From positions 1-46,001 of IMG/VR virus record IMGVR_UViG_3300029536_000014: a DNA stretch of 46,001 nt; one strand, given 5' to 3'. The notes below the pieces were generated by a model. It was not told where the DNA came from and did no database searches. It saw only the letters and a list, made by a program, of their open reading frames with translations. A program made the position numbers and the translations under genes. The DNA is from a virus. Below are positions 2,186 to 44,718 of this stretch, piece after piece; the stretch's first letter is position 1; every line of letters begins with the position of its first letter.

Positions 2186-3415
2186 ATGCTTAGCCCAGAA
2201 TATTTACGCCGGATAACAGAGGGCAGCGAACAAATTGCCGAAGAACTGCATCAATATATCATCTCTGAGATCGTGTCGAGAATGATGGCAAGAATCGGCA
2301 GGGGTGAGGATTATATTCTGACCAATGCCGATGCGTGGAGAATCAGAACACTACAGGAATCCGGTGAGCTACTAGAGGACATTCTGGCAGAATTATCCAA
2401 ATACACCAAACGTGAACAGCAGGAACTCCTTGAAGCGTTTGAAGATGCCGGAATCACTGCTCTCGATTATGATGATAAGATATACAAGGCGGCAGGATTA
2501 AGTCCGGTACCGCTCGAACAGTCGCCAGCTATGATAAGACTCATGGAGCGAAATATGCTTGCGACTATGGGAGAGTGGAAGAACTTCACAAGAACGACTG
2601 CAAGTGCCGCTCAAAGGCTCTATATTGAGCAGTGCGACCTTGCATACAACCATGTAATGACTGGGGCGGTTGGGTATACGCAAGCCATCAAAGAGGCAGT
2701 TAATAACGTTGTGAGTGATGGTGTTACGGTCACATATCCATCTGGCAGAAAAGACACGATTGAAACAGCAGTCGCACGTTCTGTTAGAACTGGTGTGGCT
2801 CAGGCTACTGGAGATATATCCCTCAAACGCATGGAAGAGATGGGCTGGGATTTAGTTCTGGTCAGTGCTCACATGGGAGCCAGAACAGGTGACGGTGGTG
2901 AGAACCCGGGAAATCACGCATGGTGGCAAGGAAAGATATACTCTCGTTCTGGCAAGAGCAAGAAATTTCCGCCGTTCTCATTGACCGGATACGGAACAGC
3001 AAGCGGACTGTCAGGAGTTAACTGTCGGCATAGCTTTGGGGCAAGTGACGGGGAATTTAATCCTTATGCAGAATTATCAGCACAGGATAAAGCCGACAAA
3101 GGTAAACAGTACGAAAAGGAACAGCGGCAACGTACTTACGAGCGAAGAATCCGAAAGGCAAAGAGAGAAGTCCTTGGAATGCAAACGGCGGTTGACAACT
3201 GCAAGGACGAACAGGCAAAATTCGCATTACAGCAAGACCTTGACAGGAAGTCTTATCTTTTGCAGAAACAAAATGCTGCATACAAAGAGTACTGCAAGCA
3301 GAATGGCCTGAGAGAATTGCAAGACCGGCTTATGATCGCCAAGTGGAACCGCCAGAATGCCGCAAAAGTCAGAGGAGCGGCAAAACGATATAAGACAGCA
3401 AAGGGGATTGACTGA
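2186..3415 (+). CDS. Head morphogenesis / minor capsid protein, Phage_Mu_F (SPP1 gp7) family
   Basis: 409 aa with RBS AGAGGTG. HMGARTGDGGENPGNHAWWQGKIY and GVNCRHSF match the MuF-domain pattern. The C-terminus is a basic coiled-coil. Confidence 0.85.
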   Translation: MLSPEYLRRITEGSEQIAEELHQYIISEIVSRMMARIGRGEDYILTNADAWRIRTLQESGELLEDILAELSKYTKREQQELLEAFEDAGITALDYDDKIYKAAGLSPVPLEQSPAMIRLMERNMLATMGEWKNFTRTTASAAQRLYIEQCDLAYNHVMTGAVGYTQAIKEAVNNVVSDGVTVTYPSGRKDTIETAVARSVRTGVAQATGDISLKRMEEMGWDLVLVSAHMGARTGDGGENPGNHAWWQGKIYSRSGKSKKFPPFSLTGYGTASGLSGVNCRHSFGASDGEFNPYAELSAQDKADKGKQYEKEQRQRTYERRIRKAKREVLGMQTAVDNCKDEQAKFALQQDLDRKSYLLQKQNAAYKEYCKQNGLRELQDRLMIAKWNRQNAAKVRGAAKRYKTAKGID

Positions 3416-6944: not shown

Positions 6945-7367
6945 ATGGCAGAATTTACAAATGTAGCTGCTCAGACTGTAGCAGCAAATGGAAACGTAGT
7001 ATTTTCAAACACAGCAGTCAAAGGTTCTAACTGCATTCATCACAGGGAAGGAAGCGGGATTATTACGCTGAGAGGGTTTACTAACCAGTGCAAGGCTAGA
7101 TTTTTCGTGGACTTCTCTGGTAATATCGCAATTCCAACAGGCGGTACTGTCGGAGCTATTTCTCTGGCTATTGCAATCTCTGGTGAACCTGTATTATCTT
7201 CACAGATGATTTCCACACCGGCAGCAGTAGATCAGTACAACAATGTGTCCTCTGGTATCTATATTGATGTACCTCGCGGATGTTGCGTTAATATCGCAGT
7301 AGAGAACACAAGCGATCAAGCTATTTCTGTTGCGAACGCAAACATTGTTGTGACCAGAGAAGCATAG
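6945..7367 (+). CDS. Beta-rich protein, possibly a TNF/C1q-like jelly roll (BclA C-terminal-domain-like)
   Basis: 140 aa with RBS GAAAGGAG. Alternating hydrophobic beta pattern: ARFFVDFSGNIAIPTGGTVGAISLAIAISG...VNIAVENTSDQAISVANANIVVTR. The fold call is pattern-level only. Confidence 0.6.
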   Translation: MAEFTNVAAQTVAANGNVVFSNTAVKGSNCIHHREGSGIITLRGFTNQCKARFFVDFSGNIAIPTGGTVGAISLAIAISGEPVLSSQMISTPAAVDQYNNVSSGIYIDVPRGCCVNIAVENTSDQAISVANANIVVTREA

Positions 7368-7378
7368 GAGGTGTGATT

Positions 7379-7933
7379 ATGAGAGACATTAAAGACTTAT
7401 GTGCAAGAATCGAAGATGAACTTTCCAAAATTGCTGACAGTGGGCTGACCACTGGAAATCTGGAAATGACATATAAGTTGATTGATATGTACAAAGATAT
7501 CAAGAATACACAGTACTGGGACAAAAAAGTGGAGTATTACAACACTGTCCTTGATGAGATGCGTGGCGGATACAATGACGATTACAGCGAGCGCGGAAGA
7601 AAACGTGACAGCATGGGGAGATACAGCGCAAATGATGGCAGAATGATGCCGGATTACGACAGGGGCAATTCTTATGCCAGACGTGGTGAACATTATGTCA
7701 GAGGGCATTACAGTCGTTCTGATGGGCGAGATGCTTACGATGACTATATGACGCAGAAGCAAAGCTATCGTTCCGGCAAGTCTGAGGACTGTAAGAGGAA
7801 GATGCTTGCCGCATTGGAAGAACACCTTGACGAGCTTACTACAGAAATGAGCGATATGTCCAAGGATGCAGAGTGTAGGGAAGAACGTGATCTTGTCAAG
7901 AGATACGTGGAAAAACTTCGGGATATGCTCTAA
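7379..7933 (+). CDS. Hypothetical protein with an Arg/Tyr/Asp/Ser-rich disordered centre
   Basis: 184 aa from ATG 7379 (AGGAGG 7 nt upstream). Helical ends flank GRKRDSMGRYSANDGR...YARRGEHYVRGHYSRSDGRDAYDDY. Confidence 0.65.
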   Translation: MRDIKDLCARIEDELSKIADSGLTTGNLEMTYKLIDMYKDIKNTQYWDKKVEYYNTVLDEMRGGYNDDYSERGRKRDSMGRYSANDGRMMPDYDRGNSYARRGEHYVRGHYSRSDGRDAYDDYMTQKQSYRSGKSEDCKRKMLAALEEHLDELTTEMSDMSKDAECREERDLVKRYVEKLRDML

Positions 7934-7944
7934 TTTGATGAAAC

Positions 7945-7980
7945 ATGTACCACAACTTTTTGAAGGTTCTGTGATACAAT
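7945..7980 (+). promoter_or_regulatory. Conserved bipartite phage promoter element, copy 2
   Basis: ATGTACCACAACTTTT (7945-7960), a 12-nt spacer, then TGaTACAAT (7971-7980). It lies directly upstream of the non-coding RNA locus and the scaffold/capsid genes. Confidence 0.6.
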
Positions 7981-7986
7981 ATATTC

Positions 7987-8490
7987 GTAGGGAAGATTTG
8001 TAAGCAGAAATGCTTGACATAGACATTTTTATTGCTTTCCTCCTTTCTTTAAGCAGATGCGTGTCCTTAATAGAAACAGGTTCGGGGTGGAATCTGGAGG
8101 TTGAAAAGCGGATGCAATTTCCGACACGTATCATTGCCGCTAGTGCATGGCGGCATACCTCCTTGTGAGCATATAACTGAACAGTGAAATCCAACCCGTG
8201 CAGAGGTGTGCGGCCGTATAGGCGGTGTTGACGTAGCCCGAAACGTCTCGTGTTTAGGCATAGCACGATAAATACCTTGCTAACCCGGGAATCCGGGTTA
8301 TGTGGAATGTACGCTAGTGGAAAACTGACAGGGTCGCGCTCTGGTCTCCGGTTCGATTCCGGGCATTCCGCTTTGATTTGGTTAGAATTACGCTGTCTGT
8401 ATACAGATGGTCTATGATTCGACTGAATTTATCTCATGAGAAAAGGTTATTGCTTATCCTGCTGTCTGGTGTCCGGATCAAAAAGCATAA
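7987..8490 (+). ncRNA. Candidate large structured non-coding RNA (about 0.5 kb), class unassigned
   Basis: No credible + strand ORF. Nested helices: 8002-8015 (GAAA loop), 8083-8090/8191-8198, 8096-8101/8157-8162, 8135-8140/8150-8155, 8230-8247, and a perfect 8-bp hairpin at 8281-8300. Located next to a tRNA. Confidence 0.45.
8303..8371 (+). ncRNA. tRNA-like module lacking a canonical anticodon arm
   Basis: 7-bp acceptor stem TGGAATG/CATTCCG. T-arm TCCGG-TTCGATT-CCGGG (8347-8363). An AGTGG D-loop motif is present. The central 37 nt cannot form a D-stem plus a 7-nt anticodon loop. Confidence 0.45.
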
Positions 8491-8562
8491 TGAAATGTAG
8501 CTCAGTGGTAGAGCAACATCCGCATAGGGTGCGTGTCGGCGGTTCGATTCCGCCTATTTCAT
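8491..8562 (+). tRNA. tRNA with anticodon CAU (Met or Ile2 type), 72 nt, CCA not encoded
   Basis: Cloverleaf folded by hand: acceptor TGAAATG/TATTTCA; D arm GCTC-AGTGGTA-GAGC; anticodon arm ACATC-CGCATAG-GGTGC; variable loop GTGTC; T arm GGCGG-TTCGATT-CCGCC. Unusual G33 and an A27-C43 mismatch. Confidence 0.7.
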
Positions 8563-8639
8563 TACCCTGCCAGTGGTCTAACTGGCTTAATCCACTTACC
8601 TGCGGCGGCAGGTCAATAAACACGACCAGGAGGATATAT

Positions 8640-9272
8640 ATGCAGAAACTTATTGACACATTAAAATCATTTGGAATTGAGATCCCGGAGGACAAGCAGG
8701 CAGATGTAAAAAAATCACTCTCTGAGCATTATAAGAATGCAAAAGAAGTTGCGAAGACTCTGTCAAAAGTCGAGGGAGAACGTGATGACTGGAAAGAACG
8801 CGCTGAGACAGCAGAGGAAACCTTAAAAGGCTTTGACGGTATCGACCCGGCAAATGTTAAGACCGAGTTAGAGACCTGGAAACAGAAAGCGGCAGATGCA
8901 GAGAAAGAATTCAATGCGAAAATCTATGACCGTGATTTCTCAGATGCTCTGAAAGCAGCACTCGATGATGTTAAATTTTCAAGCGAAGCGGCAAAGAAAT
9001 CAGTCATGGCAGACATCAAAGAAGCAGGTCTTAAGCTGAAAGACGGCAAAATCCTTGGGCTGAACGATCTGATTGAGCAGATGAAACAGTCTGACGCATC
9101 CGCTTTCGTGGATGAATCTCAGCAGCAAGCTCAGCAGAATCAGGCAAGATTTACCACTCATGTTGGACAGCAGCAGACACCGGGAAGCATGACAAAGAAG
9201 GAAATCGAAGCGATCAAAGACCCATCTGAGAGACAGGCTGCGATTGCTCAGAATATCCAGCTATTCCAGTGA
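8640..9272 (+). CDS. Scaffolding protein (Phage_GP20-like)
   Basis: 210 aa from ATG 8640 (AGGAGG 7 nt upstream); the track start 8436 reads through the tRNA. Highly charged helical protein with a Gln-rich tail, directly upstream of the capsid gene. Confidence 0.8.
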   Translation: MQKLIDTLKSFGIEIPEDKQADVKKSLSEHYKNAKEVAKTLSKVEGERDDWKERAETAEETLKGFDGIDPANVKTELETWKQKAADAEKEFNAKIYDRDFSDALKAALDDVKFSSEAAKKSVMADIKEAGLKLKDGKILGLNDLIEQMKQSDASAFVDESQQQAQQNQARFTTHVGQQQTPGSMTKKEIEAIKDPSERQAAIAQNIQLFQ

Positions 9273-9348
9273 TTTTTACACCGACTATACACCAGAGTAT
9301 AGCCGCTAACCCAATACCTTAACAATTATGGGTAGAAAGGATTTTTTT

Positions 9349-10515
9349 ATGCCAGCAAAAACAAATCTTATTATGACTAATGATATTCAGGTCACAGCAC
9401 GTGAGATTGATTTTGTTACCAGATTCGAAAGAAACTGGCAGCACTTACGTGATATTCTTGGTATCATGAGACCTATCAAAAAACAGCCGGGTGCTGTACT
9501 CAAGTCCAAGTACGCAGAGGGTACTTTACAGAGCGGACTTGTCGGTGAGGGCGAGGAAATCCCTTACAGCAAATTCGTTGTAAAAGAAAAGAAATATGCG
9601 GAAATGACTATCGAGAAGTACGCAAAGGCTGTATCTATCGAAGCAATCAAGGATCACGGCTATGAGAACGCCGTTCAGATGACTGATGATGAATTCCTTT
9701 TCCAGCTTCAGACTGATGTTACCGGCAGATTCTATGATTATCTGAAAACCGGTACACTTACTTCCACAGAAACAACATTCCAGATGGCTTTGGCAATGGC
9801 CAAAGGCCGTGTAGAAAACAAATTCAAACAGATGCACAGAAATGTGACTGGTGTTGTTGGATTCGTGAACATTCTGGACGTATATGAATATCTCGGAGCG
9901 GCTGAGATTACTATTCAGAACCAGTTCGGCTTCCAGTACATGAAGGATTTCATGGGATTCAAAACTATCTTTCTGTTATCTGACAGCGAGATTCCAAGAG
10001 GGCAGGTTATTGCAACTCCTGTTGAGAACATCGTACTTTACTATGTTGACCCGAATGAATCTGACTTTGCAAGAGCTGGTCTGGTGTATACCGTATCTGG
10101 CGAGACAAACCTGATCGGATTCCATACACAGGGTAACTACCACACAGCAGTGTCCGAAGCGTTCGCAGTTATGGGACTTACTCTTTTTGCGGAGTACATT
10201 GATGCAATCGCAGTAATTACCATTGATGAAACACCGACCCTCGGTACCCTGACAGTAACATCTGCAGCTGGAACAGCAACTGGTGATACGAAAATCACTG
10301 TAAATCCGGCTAAGGAAAATGCTAACAACGTATATAAATACAAAGTTGCAACAGACGCAGTAACTGTTGGATATGGACAGAACCTCAGAAACTGGACTTC
10401 TTGGGACGGAAAAGCTGACGTTAAGGCAACAACCGGACAGAAGATCACAGTGGTTGAATGTGATGGAACATACAAAGCACTGAATGCCGGAAGCGCAAGC
10501 GTAACAGCAAAATGA
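9349..10515 (+). CDS. Major capsid protein with a C-terminal Ig-like extension
   Basis: 388 aa from ATG 9349 (GAAAGGA upstream), positioned after the scaffold gene. The C-terminal ~90 aa (TLTVTSAAGTATGDTKITV...KITVVECDG) looks like a Big_2-type Ig domain. Confidence 0.75.
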   Translation: MPAKTNLIMTNDIQVTAREIDFVTRFERNWQHLRDILGIMRPIKKQPGAVLKSKYAEGTLQSGLVGEGEEIPYSKFVVKEKKYAEMTIEKYAKAVSIEAIKDHGYENAVQMTDDEFLFQLQTDVTGRFYDYLKTGTLTSTETTFQMALAMAKGRVENKFKQMHRNVTGVVGFVNILDVYEYLGAAEITIQNQFGFQYMKDFMGFKTIFLLSDSEIPRGQVIATPVENIVLYYVDPNESDFARAGLVYTVSGETNLIGFHTQGNYHTAVSEAFAVMGLTLFAEYIDAIAVITIDETPTLGTLTVTSAAGTATGDTKITVNPAKENANNVYKYKVATDAVTVGYGQNLRNWTSWDGKADVKATTGQKITVVECDGTYKALNAGSASVTAK

Positions 10516-10538
10516 TGATCGATTAGGAGGTAACTGGC

Positions 10539-11033
10539 ATGGCGTATGCAGATTATAAATTCTATACAGAATCATTCGGCAATGTCGTGCCAGAAGCCGA
10601 CTTTCCACGACTGGCAGAAAGAGCCAGTGATTTCGTGGACACAATGACATTTGACAGACTGGTGGACGGACTGCCAGCTGATAAGCGTTCACAGAAACGT
10701 ATTAAAAAGGCGGTCTGTTCACTGACTGAATTAATGTATCAGATTGAGCTTGCTGAGAAGAATGCTACCAATGCCGCTGTGAGCGGTACGTCAACCGCAA
10801 TCGGGTCCGGTGGTAGCACGACAGGCATTGTAACATCTGTATCATCTGGCAGTGAATCCATCTCTTATGCAACGCCACAGCAGAAAGCATCAGGTGCAAA
10901 GGAATGGAGTGCAGTGTATGCCGCCGCCGGAGATGTACAGAAAACGAACGACTTACTCTTAAAGACAGCTTTACCGCTTCTGATGGGAGTAAGGACGGAT
11001 GATGGAATACCAATTCTTTATGCAGGGGTATGA
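10539..11033 (+). CDS. Head-tail connector/adaptor protein (gp6/gp15-like)
   Basis: 164 aa with RBS GGAGG. The N-terminal YADYKFYTESFGNVVPEADFPRLAERASDFVD pattern is typical of head-tail adaptors. First gene after the capsid gene. Confidence 0.6.
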   Translation: MAYADYKFYTESFGNVVPEADFPRLAERASDFVDTMTFDRLVDGLPADKRSQKRIKKAVCSLTELMYQIELAEKNATNAAVSGTSTAIGSGGSTTGIVTSVSSGSESISYATPQQKASGAKEWSAVYAAAGDVQKTNDLLLKTALPLLMGVRTDDGIPILYAGV

Positions 11034-43057: not shown

Positions 43058-43093
43058 ATGTACCACAACTTTTCCGCCAACCTATGATAGAAT
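43058..43093 (+). promoter_or_regulatory. Conserved bipartite phage promoter element, copy 3 (upstream of the terminase)
   Basis: ATGTACCACAACTTTT (43058-43073), a 12-nt spacer, then TGaTAGAAT (43084-43093). Lies right after a terminator and 54 nt before the terminase start. Confidence 0.6.
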
Positions 43094-43146: not shown

Positions 43147-44718
43147 TTGGATGTTGATAGGATGGCAAATGATCAGAATTTAAATAATAGAGCGGCGACA
43201 CAGTTTCGAAGCGGTGAGGAAGCGGTGAGAAATGGGAAAAAAGGCGGTATCGCATCTGGATATTCTAGGAGACAAAAAAAAGCCCTTTCTGATTATGTGA
43301 AAATTATAGCTGAAAGCCCTGCATCAAGTACTGCAAAAAAGAAACTTGCAAAAATGGGGATTGCTGACGAAGACGCAAATAACATGGCAGTCGTAGCAAC
43401 TTCTCTGTATAAAAAAGCGGCAGATGGAAATATACAGGCTATCGAAAAATGGGAGCAGCTAACAGCAGCTTCAAAAGACGATGATGAAAAATATGAACTT
43501 CCTGCCAGAGTACTTGGCAAGGCGTTCGTGGATATTAACCGACAGATTAAGCCTAATATTGAATATGTATTTGAGGGCGGTCGTGGTGGCCTAAAATCGT
43601 CGTTTGTAGCCTTTAAGATTGTTGAGCTTATCAAGAATAATCCCCAGATGCACGCCTGCATTACAAGACAAGTAGCCGGTACTCTGAAAGATTCTGTATA
43701 TGCTAACATGAAATGGGCTATCAATGAACTGGGATTGATGGAAGAATTTGAATGCAAGGTGTCGCCACTTGAGATCAAGTATATTAAGACAGGGCAGACA
43801 ATATACTTCCGTGGTCTGGACGATGAAACCAAACTGAAATCTATTAAGCCGGAATTTGGATATATCGGAATCCTTTGGAAAGAAGAAAAAGACCAGATGA
43901 AGGGAGATGCTCAGGAACGTTCTGTTAATCAGTCAGTACTTCGTGGCGGCGATGAATCCTATGATTTTTCATCGTATAACCCACCAAAATCAAAATCAAA
44001 CTGGGTAAACAGGATCAAGCTCACACCTAACCCGAAAAGAGTTATTCATCATTCGAGTTATTTGGAAGCCCCGGCGGAGTGGCTCGGACAGAAGTTTATT
44101 GACGATGCAGCACATCTGAAAGAAATCAATCCAGAAGCCTATGAACATGAATACCTGGGTGTTCCGAATGGCGATGGTGGAAACGTATTTGAATACCTAG
44201 AAATCAGAGATATTACAGATGAAGAAATTAGCCGCATGGATCGCATTTTTGCTGGTGTAGATTTTGGATGGTATCCTGACCAGTTCTGCTATCTCCGAAC
44301 TTATTACGATTCTGCTAGAGAGAAAATATATCTGATTGACGAATTGTATGTAAATAAATGGAGCAACTCCAAGACCGCTGATTGGATCAAGAAAAAAGGC
44401 TATGACGATTATACGATGATATGTGATTCTGCGGAGCCTAAGTCCGTGAATGATTTCCGGGACGCCGGACTTCCTGCCAGAGGAGCAATCAAAGGGCCGG
44501 GAAGTATCGAGTATGGTTTTAAGTTCTTACAGACTAAGACACTTGTCATTGACCCGAAGCGGACACCGAACGCATACAAAGAAATTACAGAATATGAGTA
44601 TGATCGGGACAAAGAGGGAAATGTAATAAGCGGTTATCCTGATGGAAACGATCATGCAATTTCGGCACTCAGGTATGCTTATGAGCCGTTATTTAACAGG
44701 AGGGGGTACAGTGCATAA
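43147..44718 (+). CDS. terL: Terminase large subunit (PBSX/XtmB-type) with an N-terminal small-subunit-like extension
   Basis: 523 aa from TTG 43147 (GAAAGGA upstream), or from ATG 43162. The TerL core starts near aa 125 (YVFEGGRGGLKSS is Walker A-like; WKEEKD). The N-terminus GGIASGYSRRQKK...AADGNIQAIEKWEQL is TerS-like. Confidence 0.85.
   Translation: MDVDRMANDQNLNNRAATQFRSGEEAVRNGKKGGIASGYSRRQKKALSDYVKIIAESPASSTAKKKLAKMGIADEDANNMAVVATSLYKKAADGNIQAIEKWEQLTAASKDDDEKYELPARVLGKAFVDINRQIKPNIEYVFEGGRGGLKSSFVAFKIVELIKNNPQMHACITRQVAGTLKDSVYANMKWAINELGLMEEFECKVSPLEIKYIKTGQTIYFRGLDDETKLKSIKPEFGYIGILWKEEKDQMKGDAQERSVNQSVLRGGDESYDFSSYNPPKSKSNWVNRIKLTPNPKRVIHHSSYLEAPAEWLGQKFIDDAAHLKEINPEAYEHEYLGVPNGDGGNVFEYLEIRDITDEEISRMDRIFAGVDFGWYPDQFCYLRTYYDSAREKIYLIDELYVNKWSNSKTADWIKKKGYDDYTMICDSAEPKSVNDFRDAGLPARGAIKGPGSIEYGFKFLQTKTLVIDPKRTPNAYKEITEYEYDRDKEGNVISGYPDGNDHAISALRYAYEPLFNRRGYSA

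Follow-up and report, generated by a model that had tools for sequence, protein, structure and literature searches.

The DNA analyzed here, positions 1 to 46,001 of the IMG/VR virus record IMGVR_UViG_3300029536_000014 (46,001 nucleotides (nt); hereafter the window), is the genome (about 46 kb) of a gut phage and encodes a minor head protein (2186–3415), a scaffold protein (8640–9272), a major capsid protein (9328–10515) and a terminase (43147–44718). The head genes are separated by a gap of 0.7 kb (7941–8639) between the coding sequence (CDS) 7379–7933 and the scaffold gene. In this gap, an RNA of the RAGATH-21 family (RF03097) was found at 8056–8132, and a degenerate tRNA-like element, a tRNA and the 5′ untranslated region (UTR) of the scaffold gene come after it. 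These elements stand in this order behind a promoter-like box, on the same strand (the + strand, to which all coordinates refer unless noted) as the scaffold and capsid genes downstream, as an earlier note on this DNA had described for the leader. The gap is a non-coding, structured and modular leader, and is neither a missing gene nor a new giant RNA. For annotation, this shows that no gene is missing between the head genes here.

The RAGATH-21 RNA was identified with the covariance models of Rfam 15, which were run over the whole window at the gathering score and permissively (E ≤ 10) over 7700–8900; 27 related loci were also scanned. The match of 77 nt covers positions 1–76 of the 76-position model with 86.9 bits (gathering cut-off 70.3, E 2e-17). 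It consists of a 10-bp closing stem P1 (8056–8065/8123–8132), the junction J1/2 (8066–8076, CTTAATAGAAA), the stem P2 (8077–8083/8090–8096) followed by GAG (8097–8099), the stem P3 (8100–8102/8107–8109) with a GAAA loop, and the stem P4 (8110–8112/8120–8122) with the loop TGCAATT. The window agrees with the consensus at all upper-case positions, including the junction CCUUAAnAGAAA and the core GAGGUUGAAAAGCGGAUGCAAUUUCCG. Relatives were collected from GenBank (4 loci), IMG/VR (119 loci) and genomes (14 loci), the last two sets by a scan for the core pattern, and the hosts of the collected loci are Lachnospiraceae (Enterocloster, Blautia, Faecalimonas, Mediterraneibacter and others). When 88 unique RAGATH-21 homologues were analyzed with RNAalifold, the Rfam fold was recovered, with both-sided changes in 8 of 9 P1 pairs and in three predicted pairs at the base of P2. 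P3 and P4 were invariant and uninformative for covariation. P1 has 9–11 bp in 86 of 98 sequences, and the length of the P2 insert varies between 24 and 49 nt. The RNA is a compact junction with about 45 nearly invariant nucleotides. Scans of 2.9 million IMG/VR viral contigs gave 1, 0 and 0 variants at three positions of the core GAGG, and the single variant, GAGG to GAAG, was uncompensated.

Judged by its sequence, the core is a new member of the known family RAGATH-21 and not a new class. The earlier note had suspected a known class of phage RNA beside tRNAs, and the Rfam match bears this out. RAGATH-21 reportedly comes from the 2017 collection of candidate structured RNAs by Weinberg et al., and RAGATH motifs are said to have been gathered as ribozyme candidates. 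RAGATH-21, like many structured RNAs of phages, has no known function, and we know of no activity reported for it. No mention of RAGATH-21 was found in the papers searched, and the word RAGATH does not occur in the main text of Weinberg 2017. In Dulem virus 35 (L219 2344–2475, where L numbers denote loci of our collection; PP511522.1 10501–10632), a CDS for a "hypothetical protein" is annotated in GenBank on top of RAGATH-21 (83.9 bits), which is probably a spurious gene call.

The position of RAGATH-21 relative to tRNAs is uniform among the relatives. Within 800 nt on the 3′ side of RAGATH-21, tRNAs on the same strand are present in 79 of 106 unique loci; none lies on the 5′ side (0 of 102) or on the opposite strand (0), and the other 910 kb of these contigs were free of tRNAs. 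Since tRNAs occur only downstream and none elsewhere, RAGATH-21 stands at the head of the single tRNA array of each phage. No tRNA was called in 27 loci; 15 of these contain sub-threshold tRNA-like elements, and in the other 12 the scaffold gene follows after about 92 nt. A homologue of the PF06810 scaffold protein (27–100% identity) is encoded 3′ on the same strand in 112 of 121 RAGATH-21 loci. The distance between the two, about 90 nt in the shortest loci and over 1.2 kb in the longest, is filled with 0–3 called tRNAs per locus, tRNA-like elements and sometimes ROOL RNA; three loci have only 0–3 nt between the end of P1 and the 5′ end of a tRNA. ROOL was located among the tRNAs of the RAGATH-21-led array, 5′ of the scaffold gene, in L150 (1784–2343), L073 (4213–4771) and L113 (7044–7602), with 375–385 bits. 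A skipping-rope RNA occupies the equivalent position of the array in L028 (10362–10445). The GP20-b RNA lies right before the scaffold gene in L044, L095, L137 and Ruminococcus phage RG-TP1. In more distant phages with this scaffold gene, a ribozyme search of the same slot found only RAGATH-21, GP20-b and tRNAs. By these results, the context of RAGATH-21 is sharply defined for the first time, as the obligatory first element of an array of tRNAs and ornate RNAs in a family of Lachnospiraceae phages that is very abundant in the human gut, and RAGATH-21 and ROOL are placed in what would be one transcription unit.

RAGATH-21 can be exchanged for another cassette. About 34 of 77 loci of near-identical phages, with a scaffold protein 97–100% identical to that of the window, carry a minihelix of about 50 nt in its place (L141 2133–2240, and also L146–L216). 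The flanks are the same as those of RAGATH-21, namely a pyrimidine box (box 1) on the 5′ side and, on the 3′ side, a hairpin with a second box (box 2) and a conserved block in front of the first tRNA slot. A closing stem of 7–9 bp, a small hairpin (CUUU/AAAG) and a T arm of canonical form make up the minihelix. The Rfam tRNA model covers its whole length, with a 7-bp acceptor stem and the T arm, at a sub-threshold score (17.5 bits, E 0.18), the mascRNA model gives 11.7 bits, and no Rfam family matches it. Compensatory changes were observed in its P1 and T stem. The same substitution is found in a second lineage (L221, about 2160–2250). The RAGATH-21 and minihelix cassettes share sequence beyond the level of shuffled controls (z = 4–10).

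Several elements outside the Rfam model are conserved. Box 1 (CCTCCTTTCTT, 8039–8049) is an anti-Shine-Dalgarno-like pyrimidine box 5′ of P1. CCTCC/CCUCC is present within 40 nt 5′ of P1 in 89 of 98 unique sequences, against a chance of 2.9% per 40-nt stretch, and CCTCCTTTC in 70 of 98. The usual form is CCUCCUUUC, and the anti-Shine-Dalgarno-like stretch of the window is CCUCCUUUCUU. The spacing to P1 is 7 nt in 47 of 89 loci and 12 nt in the window, and the box is kept even among lineages that share nothing else upstream. A contingency table of variants showed no covariation between box 1 and the core GGAGG. We also considered box 1 as a ribosome-binding site (RBS) of the minus strand. An ATG follows 12 nt on in the window and in the minihelix loci, yet the encoded peptides show no relation to one another, a start codon is missing in several lineages, and the long antisense frame is unconserved and without a match in PHROG, and this reading was rejected.

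Downstream of RAGATH-21, the segment up to the first tRNA slot measures 0 to about 170 nt and its content is lineage-specific. In the window lineage, 37 sequences of the spacer 8133–8300 are 90% identical, and the variation is too low for covariation except in the hairpin TGCCGC-loop-GCGGCA (8135–8155), where GCCGC/GCGGC is replaced by GCCGT/ACGGC. This local hairpin, listed in the earlier note, is therefore preserved by compensatory changes, and other lineages have unrelated hairpins in the same slot (CTGTCTAT/ATAGACAG and GCCAGT/ACTGGT). Box 2 (ACCTCCTTGT, 8157–8166), a second anti-Shine-Dalgarno-like box, lies 3′ of this hairpin and is kept in the window lineage. It reads TCACCTCCTTGA behind the alternative minihelix cassette and is absent in minimal loci such as L012 and L095. 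In the minimum-free-energy fold, box 2 pairs locally with GAGGT near 8203. The block before the first tRNA slot (8256–8300) is composed of AGGCATAGCACGATAAATACCTTGCTAA and the perfect hairpin TAACCCGG-GAAT-CCGGGTTA (8281–8300). It abuts the slot, shows 80–100% column conservation and is common to RAGATH-21 and minihelix loci. In L036 this hairpin reads AACCGGC-GTTT-GCCGGTT, with compensatory changes.

Upstream, the promoter-like box (7952–7980) is composed of an upstream element (ACAACTTTTT, 7952–7961), an 8-nt spacer and an extended −10 region (TG at 7972–7973, TACAAT at 7975–7980). The box is kept in the relatives L001–L004 and in most IMG/VR loci. A scan for the sigma-70 consensus did not call it, since a −35 hexamer is absent. 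We infer that the box acts as a promoter and that transcription starts near 7987. The earlier note had described a recurring promoter box ahead of the locus, which agrees with this conservation and with a second copy at 43065–43093. This copy, ACAACTTTT-N-TATGATAGAAT, has 2 mismatches and lies 54 nt 5′ of the gene for the terminase large subunit. The two copies suggest a shared type of late promoter with an upstream activator site. The leader then forms the hairpin AAGCA-GAAA-TGCTT (8002–8015), for which relatives have the compensatory version AAGTGG-loop-CCACTT at the same place. In other lineages (L012, L046, L071, L083, L095 and L221), the leader opens with the direct repeat GCCAGAC-GCCAGAC-GCAGAGCCA, about 60–130 nt 5′ of RAGATH-21. 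The repeat is followed by a strong terminator-like hairpin with a U tract, about 25 nt ahead of box 1. This hairpin leaves no room for a promoter before box 1, which suggests control of the late operon by antitermination. Reading the leader as boxA/nut-like was rejected, as CUUUAA occurs in some lineages only.

The first tRNA slot of the window is occupied by the degenerate tRNA-like element (8304–8371), whose acceptor stem has 7 bp and whose T arm is canonical (TTCGATT loop), while the D arm is broken. Its anticodon arm can be drawn with 5 bp and a 5-nt loop, or with the 7-nt loop GTCGCGC; G at position 32 and C at position 38 are able to pair, which would reduce the loop to 5 nt. ARAGORN reported it at relaxed thresholds (-ps80/-ps60) only, as a tRNA-Ala(CGC)-like cloverleaf of 68 nt with a mismatched D stem, and no tRNA was called there at its default thresholds or at the Rfam gathering score. 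The third acceptor pair is A:U and not G3:U70, the identity element of alanyl-tRNA synthetase. In relatives the stems show compensatory changes (CAGGG/CCCTG, CAGAG/CTCTG and GAGGG/CCCTC) around a conserved TCGCG loop, and true tRNAs fill this slot in other relatives. Because the stems covary around the conserved UCGCG loop in a slot of real tRNAs, the element is judged to be a maintained tRNA-like element and not debris. The tRNA-like module that the earlier note had drawn at 8303–8371 is thus real, with the reservation that it is degenerate and detectable by relaxed thresholds only.

A structured spacer without a credible open reading frame (ORF) separates the two tRNA slots (8372–8489). Its hairpin TCTGTATACAGA (8396–8407) is replaced by TCTGCGTGCAGG and TTTGTTTGCAGG in L001 and L146, respectively, with the pairing kept. 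The second slot contains the tRNA placed at 8491–8562 by the earlier note, which was detected by ARAGORN as tRNA-Met(CAU) (8490–8563) and by Rfam at 8491–8562 (45.9 bits, cut-off 29). Its anticodon loop is CGCAUAG, with G at position 33, where U is near-universal in tRNAs. A purine at this position was also observed in 16 of 31 unique CAU tRNAs of related arrays and in one UAU tRNA. The near-invariant 5′ UTR of the scaffold gene (8564–8639) follows directly. It includes hairpin 1 (GCCAGT/ACTGGC, 8569–8586), a TAATCCA box, hairpin 2 (ACCTGC-GGCG-GCAGGT, 8598–8613) and the Shine-Dalgarno (SD) sequence AGGAGG (8628–8633). Both hairpins keep their pairing by compensatory changes among 85 unique homologues, and AUCC of the UAAUCCA box is able to pair with GGAU of the SD region. 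In the permissive scan of 7700–8900, no Rfam family matched this UTR. Between the modules and the scaffold gene, no terminator-like or promoter-like site was found on the + strand (scanned from 7300 to 10700), except a weak hairpin at 8230–8247 and the T arm of the tRNA.

The first coding gene behind the leader is the scaffold gene (8640–9272; Pfam PF06810 Phage_scaffold, 81.4 bits; PHROG 194). In the capsid gene further downstream, residues 314–394 of the protein, a C-terminal domain, match Pfam PF18316 (S-layer SbsC C-terminal, Ig-like). The view of the earlier note that 7941–8639 is free of protein genes held up. The ORFs on the + strand do not exceed 55 amino acids, except 8436–9272, which runs through the tRNA, and no PHROG match was obtained for any ORF tested in this interval, including the minus-strand ORF 7397–8266. 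The latter (289 amino acids) spans the CDS 7379–7933 and RAGATH-21. It is not conserved: over the core, the stretch without a stop has a median length of 98 codons in 80 relatives. Because it has no PHROG match and is not kept in relatives, this antisense ORF is judged spurious. A small ORF from an AUG in the P4 loop (MQFP...) was rejected, since in some loci it crosses tRNAs and since no codon position varies.

The earlier note had interpreted the locus as one large structured RNA of 0.3–0.5 kb. All of the helices and short motifs it listed are present where it had placed them, and the hairpins at 8002–8015 and 8281–8300 are maintained by the compensatory changes described above. The long-range pairings fared differently. 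The pairing of 8083–8090 with 8191–8198 occupies the loop and the 3′ strand of P2, and relatives with an unrelated P2 keep CCAACCCG unchanged; this pairing is not supported. The pairing of GGAGGT (8096–8101) with ACCTCC (8157–8162) overlaps P2 and P3. Its two sides are invariant and uninformative, the core persists in relatives whose second box is mutated, and the pairing is not favoured. The GACGT/ACGTC hairpin (8230–8247) is lineage-specific and is not conserved in shorter lineages. The repeated 8–9-mers are at chance level: a stretch of 700 nt should contain about 3.6 identical 8-mer pairs, and in the window TAAGCAGA is found five times. The core is the 77-nt RAGATH-21, whose covarying fold is incompatible with two of the three nested pairings of the earlier note. 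The folding of 7988–8302 as a whole is modestly better than that of shuffled sequences (z = −2.4).

Other RNA classes were searched for by the two Rfam scans of the window and of 7700–8900. No hit was obtained for ROOL (RF03087, a model of about 574 positions), or for GOLLD, Y RNA/YrlA, RNase P RNA and group I/II introns. ARAGORN found no tmRNA, for which Rfam gave only a T-arm fragment (8327–8364) of 12.6 bits against a cut-off of 47. Among the ribozyme families of Rfam, none matched the window or the 27 related loci, including the hammerhead, twister, twister-sister, pistol, hatchet and HDV-like models. The arrangement is not that of a riboswitch either: a tRNA starts 0–3 nt past P1 in minimal loci, no terminator follows P1, and the distance to the scaffold gene is variable, with tRNAs in between. 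ROOL and GOLLD are phage and prophage RNAs that adjoin tRNAs (PMC5737381). The intuition of the earlier note that such RNAs are involved has a counterpart in the ROOL RNAs in the arrays of L150, L073 and L113, and fails for the window itself, where neither matched.

We consider it somewhat more probable than even that the gap is the untranslated leader of the late scaffold/capsid operon, which is cut by RNase P and RNase Z, and that RAGATH-21 is an autonomous domain in it, possibly recognized by the tRNA machinery. The region from 7987 onward would be transcribed as a single late precursor, and RNase P and RNase Z would cut at the tRNA-like element and at the tRNA. The cuts would free a leader of about 315 nt containing RAGATH-21, and the scaffold-capsid mRNA would keep its own protected, structured 5′ UTR. 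The variable payload between RAGATH-21 and the scaffold gene would be excised. As this payload is variable and would be removed, RAGATH-21 would not be a conventional riboswitch or a switch of the scaffold RBS; it would be an autonomous domain or act independently of distance. The P4 hairpin adjoins the 3′ strand of P1 as a T arm adjoins an acceptor stem, and its loop UGCAAUU may be compared with the T-loop UUCGAAU, a likeness that is our own reading. The replacement by a minihelix and the T-arm-like P4 therefore favor recognition by the tRNA-handling machinery of the host. To such recognition, with RNase P as the first candidate and a cut at the foot of P1, we would give somewhat less than an even chance. 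The cut would define and stabilize the 5′ end of the array precursor, and if it fell near 8056 in a tRNA mimic it would leave a piece of about 68 nt whose 3′ end is ...CCUCCUUUCUUUAAGCA.

Several points weigh against this interpretation. We infer the start of transcription, the co-transcription and the cuts by RNase P and RNase Z all from sequence. P1 and P4 stack to about 13 bp, compared with 12 bp in tRNA, and RAGATH-21 itself was not detected by the Rfam tRNA model. The invariant core of about 45 nt exceeds the needs of a processing signal, and the invariant GAGG hints at a specific ligand or partner. Finally, the conserved box 1 is left unexplained by the processing model.

The large invariant core would also suit a stable small RNA that acts in trans, is matured through tRNA processing and binds a host or phage protein unrelated to tRNA metabolism, like RNAs C and D of phage T4. 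Rfam classifies the family as "Gene; sRNA", RNase P would release the RNA precisely in the three loci where the 3′ end of P1 lies 0–3 nt from a tRNA, free-standing RNAs (ROOL and skipping-rope) share the array, and the size of the core suggests a specific partner. However, a free-standing gene would be expected anywhere in the array, and no tRNA precedes RAGATH-21 in any of 102 loci; in addition, twelve loci have no tRNA at all by which it could be matured. We regard a role in trans as unlikely. The fixed leading position would fit a processive antitermination element acting in cis, by analogy to HK022 put and Bacillus subtilis EAR, which would modify RNA polymerase for the untranslated array and the late operon of about 20 kb, past Rho-dependent and intrinsic terminators. 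RAGATH-21 always comes first after the promoter or the leader terminator and never inside the array; its action would have to be independent of distance, given payloads of 90 nt to more than 1.2 kb; an untranslated, structured array would be exposed to Rho; and the strong terminator hairpin just 5′ of it in several lineages suggests late control by antitermination. Nevertheless, that upstream terminator is out of reach of an RNA made after it, no intrinsic terminator on the + strand is predicted in 7300–10700 other than the tRNA and weak-hairpin sites, and the sequence resembles neither put nor EAR nor boxA. The substitution by a plain tRNA-like minihelix is also hard to square with a specific fold that binds RNA polymerase, and such an antitermination role seems to us slightly less likely still. 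The same substitution bears on the possibility that the invariant GGAGGU, with an AUG 11 nt later, is a decoy for the 30S subunit that protects the transcript from 5′-to-3′ decay, in analogy to the STAB-SD of cryIIIA mRNA, with box 1 (CCUCCUUUCU) as an intramolecular anti-SD gate or as the partner of GGAGG in an H-type pseudoknot. Indeed, the strand order (box 1, 5′ strand of P1, GGAGG, 3′ strand of P1) is that of such a pseudoknot, box 1 (in 89 of 98 sequences) keeps a spacing of about 7 nt to P1, whose length is likewise fixed (about 10 bp), and GAGG is invariant, with 1, 0 and 0 variants in the 2.9 million contigs. On the other hand, the variants of box and core do not covary, the lone GAAG variant is uncompensated, the minihelix cassette keeps box 1 and has no GGAGG, the Rfam fold uses part of GGAGG in P2 and P3, and the spacing of 11 nt from SD to AUG is long. 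A decoy of this kind would be distinctly unlikely.

A more speculative reading involves the leader that ends in box 1. RAGATH-21 and the minihelix might be "punctuation" modules for RNase P, which release the 5′ leader (hairpin plus a single-stranded tail ...CCUCCUUUCUU-3′) as an anti-SD mimic. Made in bulk from the late promoter, it would bind SD sequences, or decoy factors or toxins that recognize the 16S tail, and reprogram late translation. The leader tail would copy the 3′ tail of Firmicute 16S rRNA, which we take to be ...CACCUCCUUUCU-3′. We find this improbable. A self-cleaving ribozyme that cuts the late transcript 5′ of the tRNAs and the scaffold mRNA is very improbable. A compact junction with many invariant nucleotides would fit a catalytic core, and the RAGATH collection was reportedly drawn from intergenic regions near genes that often neighbor twister and hammerhead ribozymes. 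Against this, no known ribozyme model matches the window or the 27 related loci, a tRNA-like minihelix that is not catalytic substitutes for the RNA, and the validated ribozymes of the RAGATH screen are said to have been published separately, with RAGATH-21 not among them. Least of all do we expect the model of the earlier note to apply, namely one large ornate RNA of 0.3–0.5 kb with nested long-range helices, of the ROOL, GOLLD or Y RNA kind or of a new class. It could draw on the ROOL found in the same array in some relatives, on the slightly better folding of 7988–8302 and on the several conserved blocks outside RAGATH-21. The window, however, has no match to ROOL, GOLLD or Y RNA, the long-range helices clash with the covarying P2 or are unsupported, and the variable segment in front of the first tRNA slot (0 to about 170 nt, with lineage-specific content) shows independent modules. 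For the preferred reading, that of a processed leader with RAGATH-21 as an autonomous domain, and for its rivals alike, the question of function can now be reduced to a few cheap experiments.

Known systems resemble this locus in part. Like ROOL and GOLLD, RAGATH-21 is a phage RNA beside tRNAs, and ROOL even occurs in the same array in relatives; it differs in size, 77 nt against about 560 nt or more, and in position, as ROOL lies among the tRNAs and RAGATH-21 comes first. The stable RNAs C and D of phage T4 are small non-tRNA RNAs that are encoded and processed with its tRNA cluster, where they are not restricted to the leading position; to our knowledge, no function is known for them. RAGATH-21 is likewise a non-tRNA RNA encoded together with phage tRNAs and differs by heading the array, and no likeness to the T4 RNAs in sequence or structure is expected. 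HK022 put RNA and B. subtilis EAR are processive antitermination RNAs. They are compact RNAs near the start of an operon or inside it, with a plausible action in cis that is independent of distance; the analogy is of position only, with no similarity and no downstream terminator in 7300–10700. GP20-b RNA (RF03003) is a 5′ UTR motif of PF06810 scaffold genes and follows directly after RAGATH-21 in L095 and L137; instead of it, the window has the two-hairpin 5′ UTR (8564–8639), which belongs to no Rfam family. mascRNA is a tRNA-like processing module at the 3′ end of MALAT1, and minihelices are substrates of RNase P. RAGATH-21 likewise has a long closing stem with an abutting hairpin of a 7-nt loop, would share a precursor with real tRNAs and can be replaced by a minihelix. 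It differs by the extra P2 and the GNRA hairpin and escapes the tRNA models, and its cleavage is only proposed here. The closest comparison is with RAGATH-21 (RF03097) itself: the window shares its four-helix architecture, the invariant J1/2 and core, and the context of gut Clostridia phages, and nothing contradicts membership. To the Rfam model, the present analysis adds the 5′ CCUCC box, the leading position in tRNA arrays, the link with the PF06810 scaffold gene and the exchange with the minihelix.

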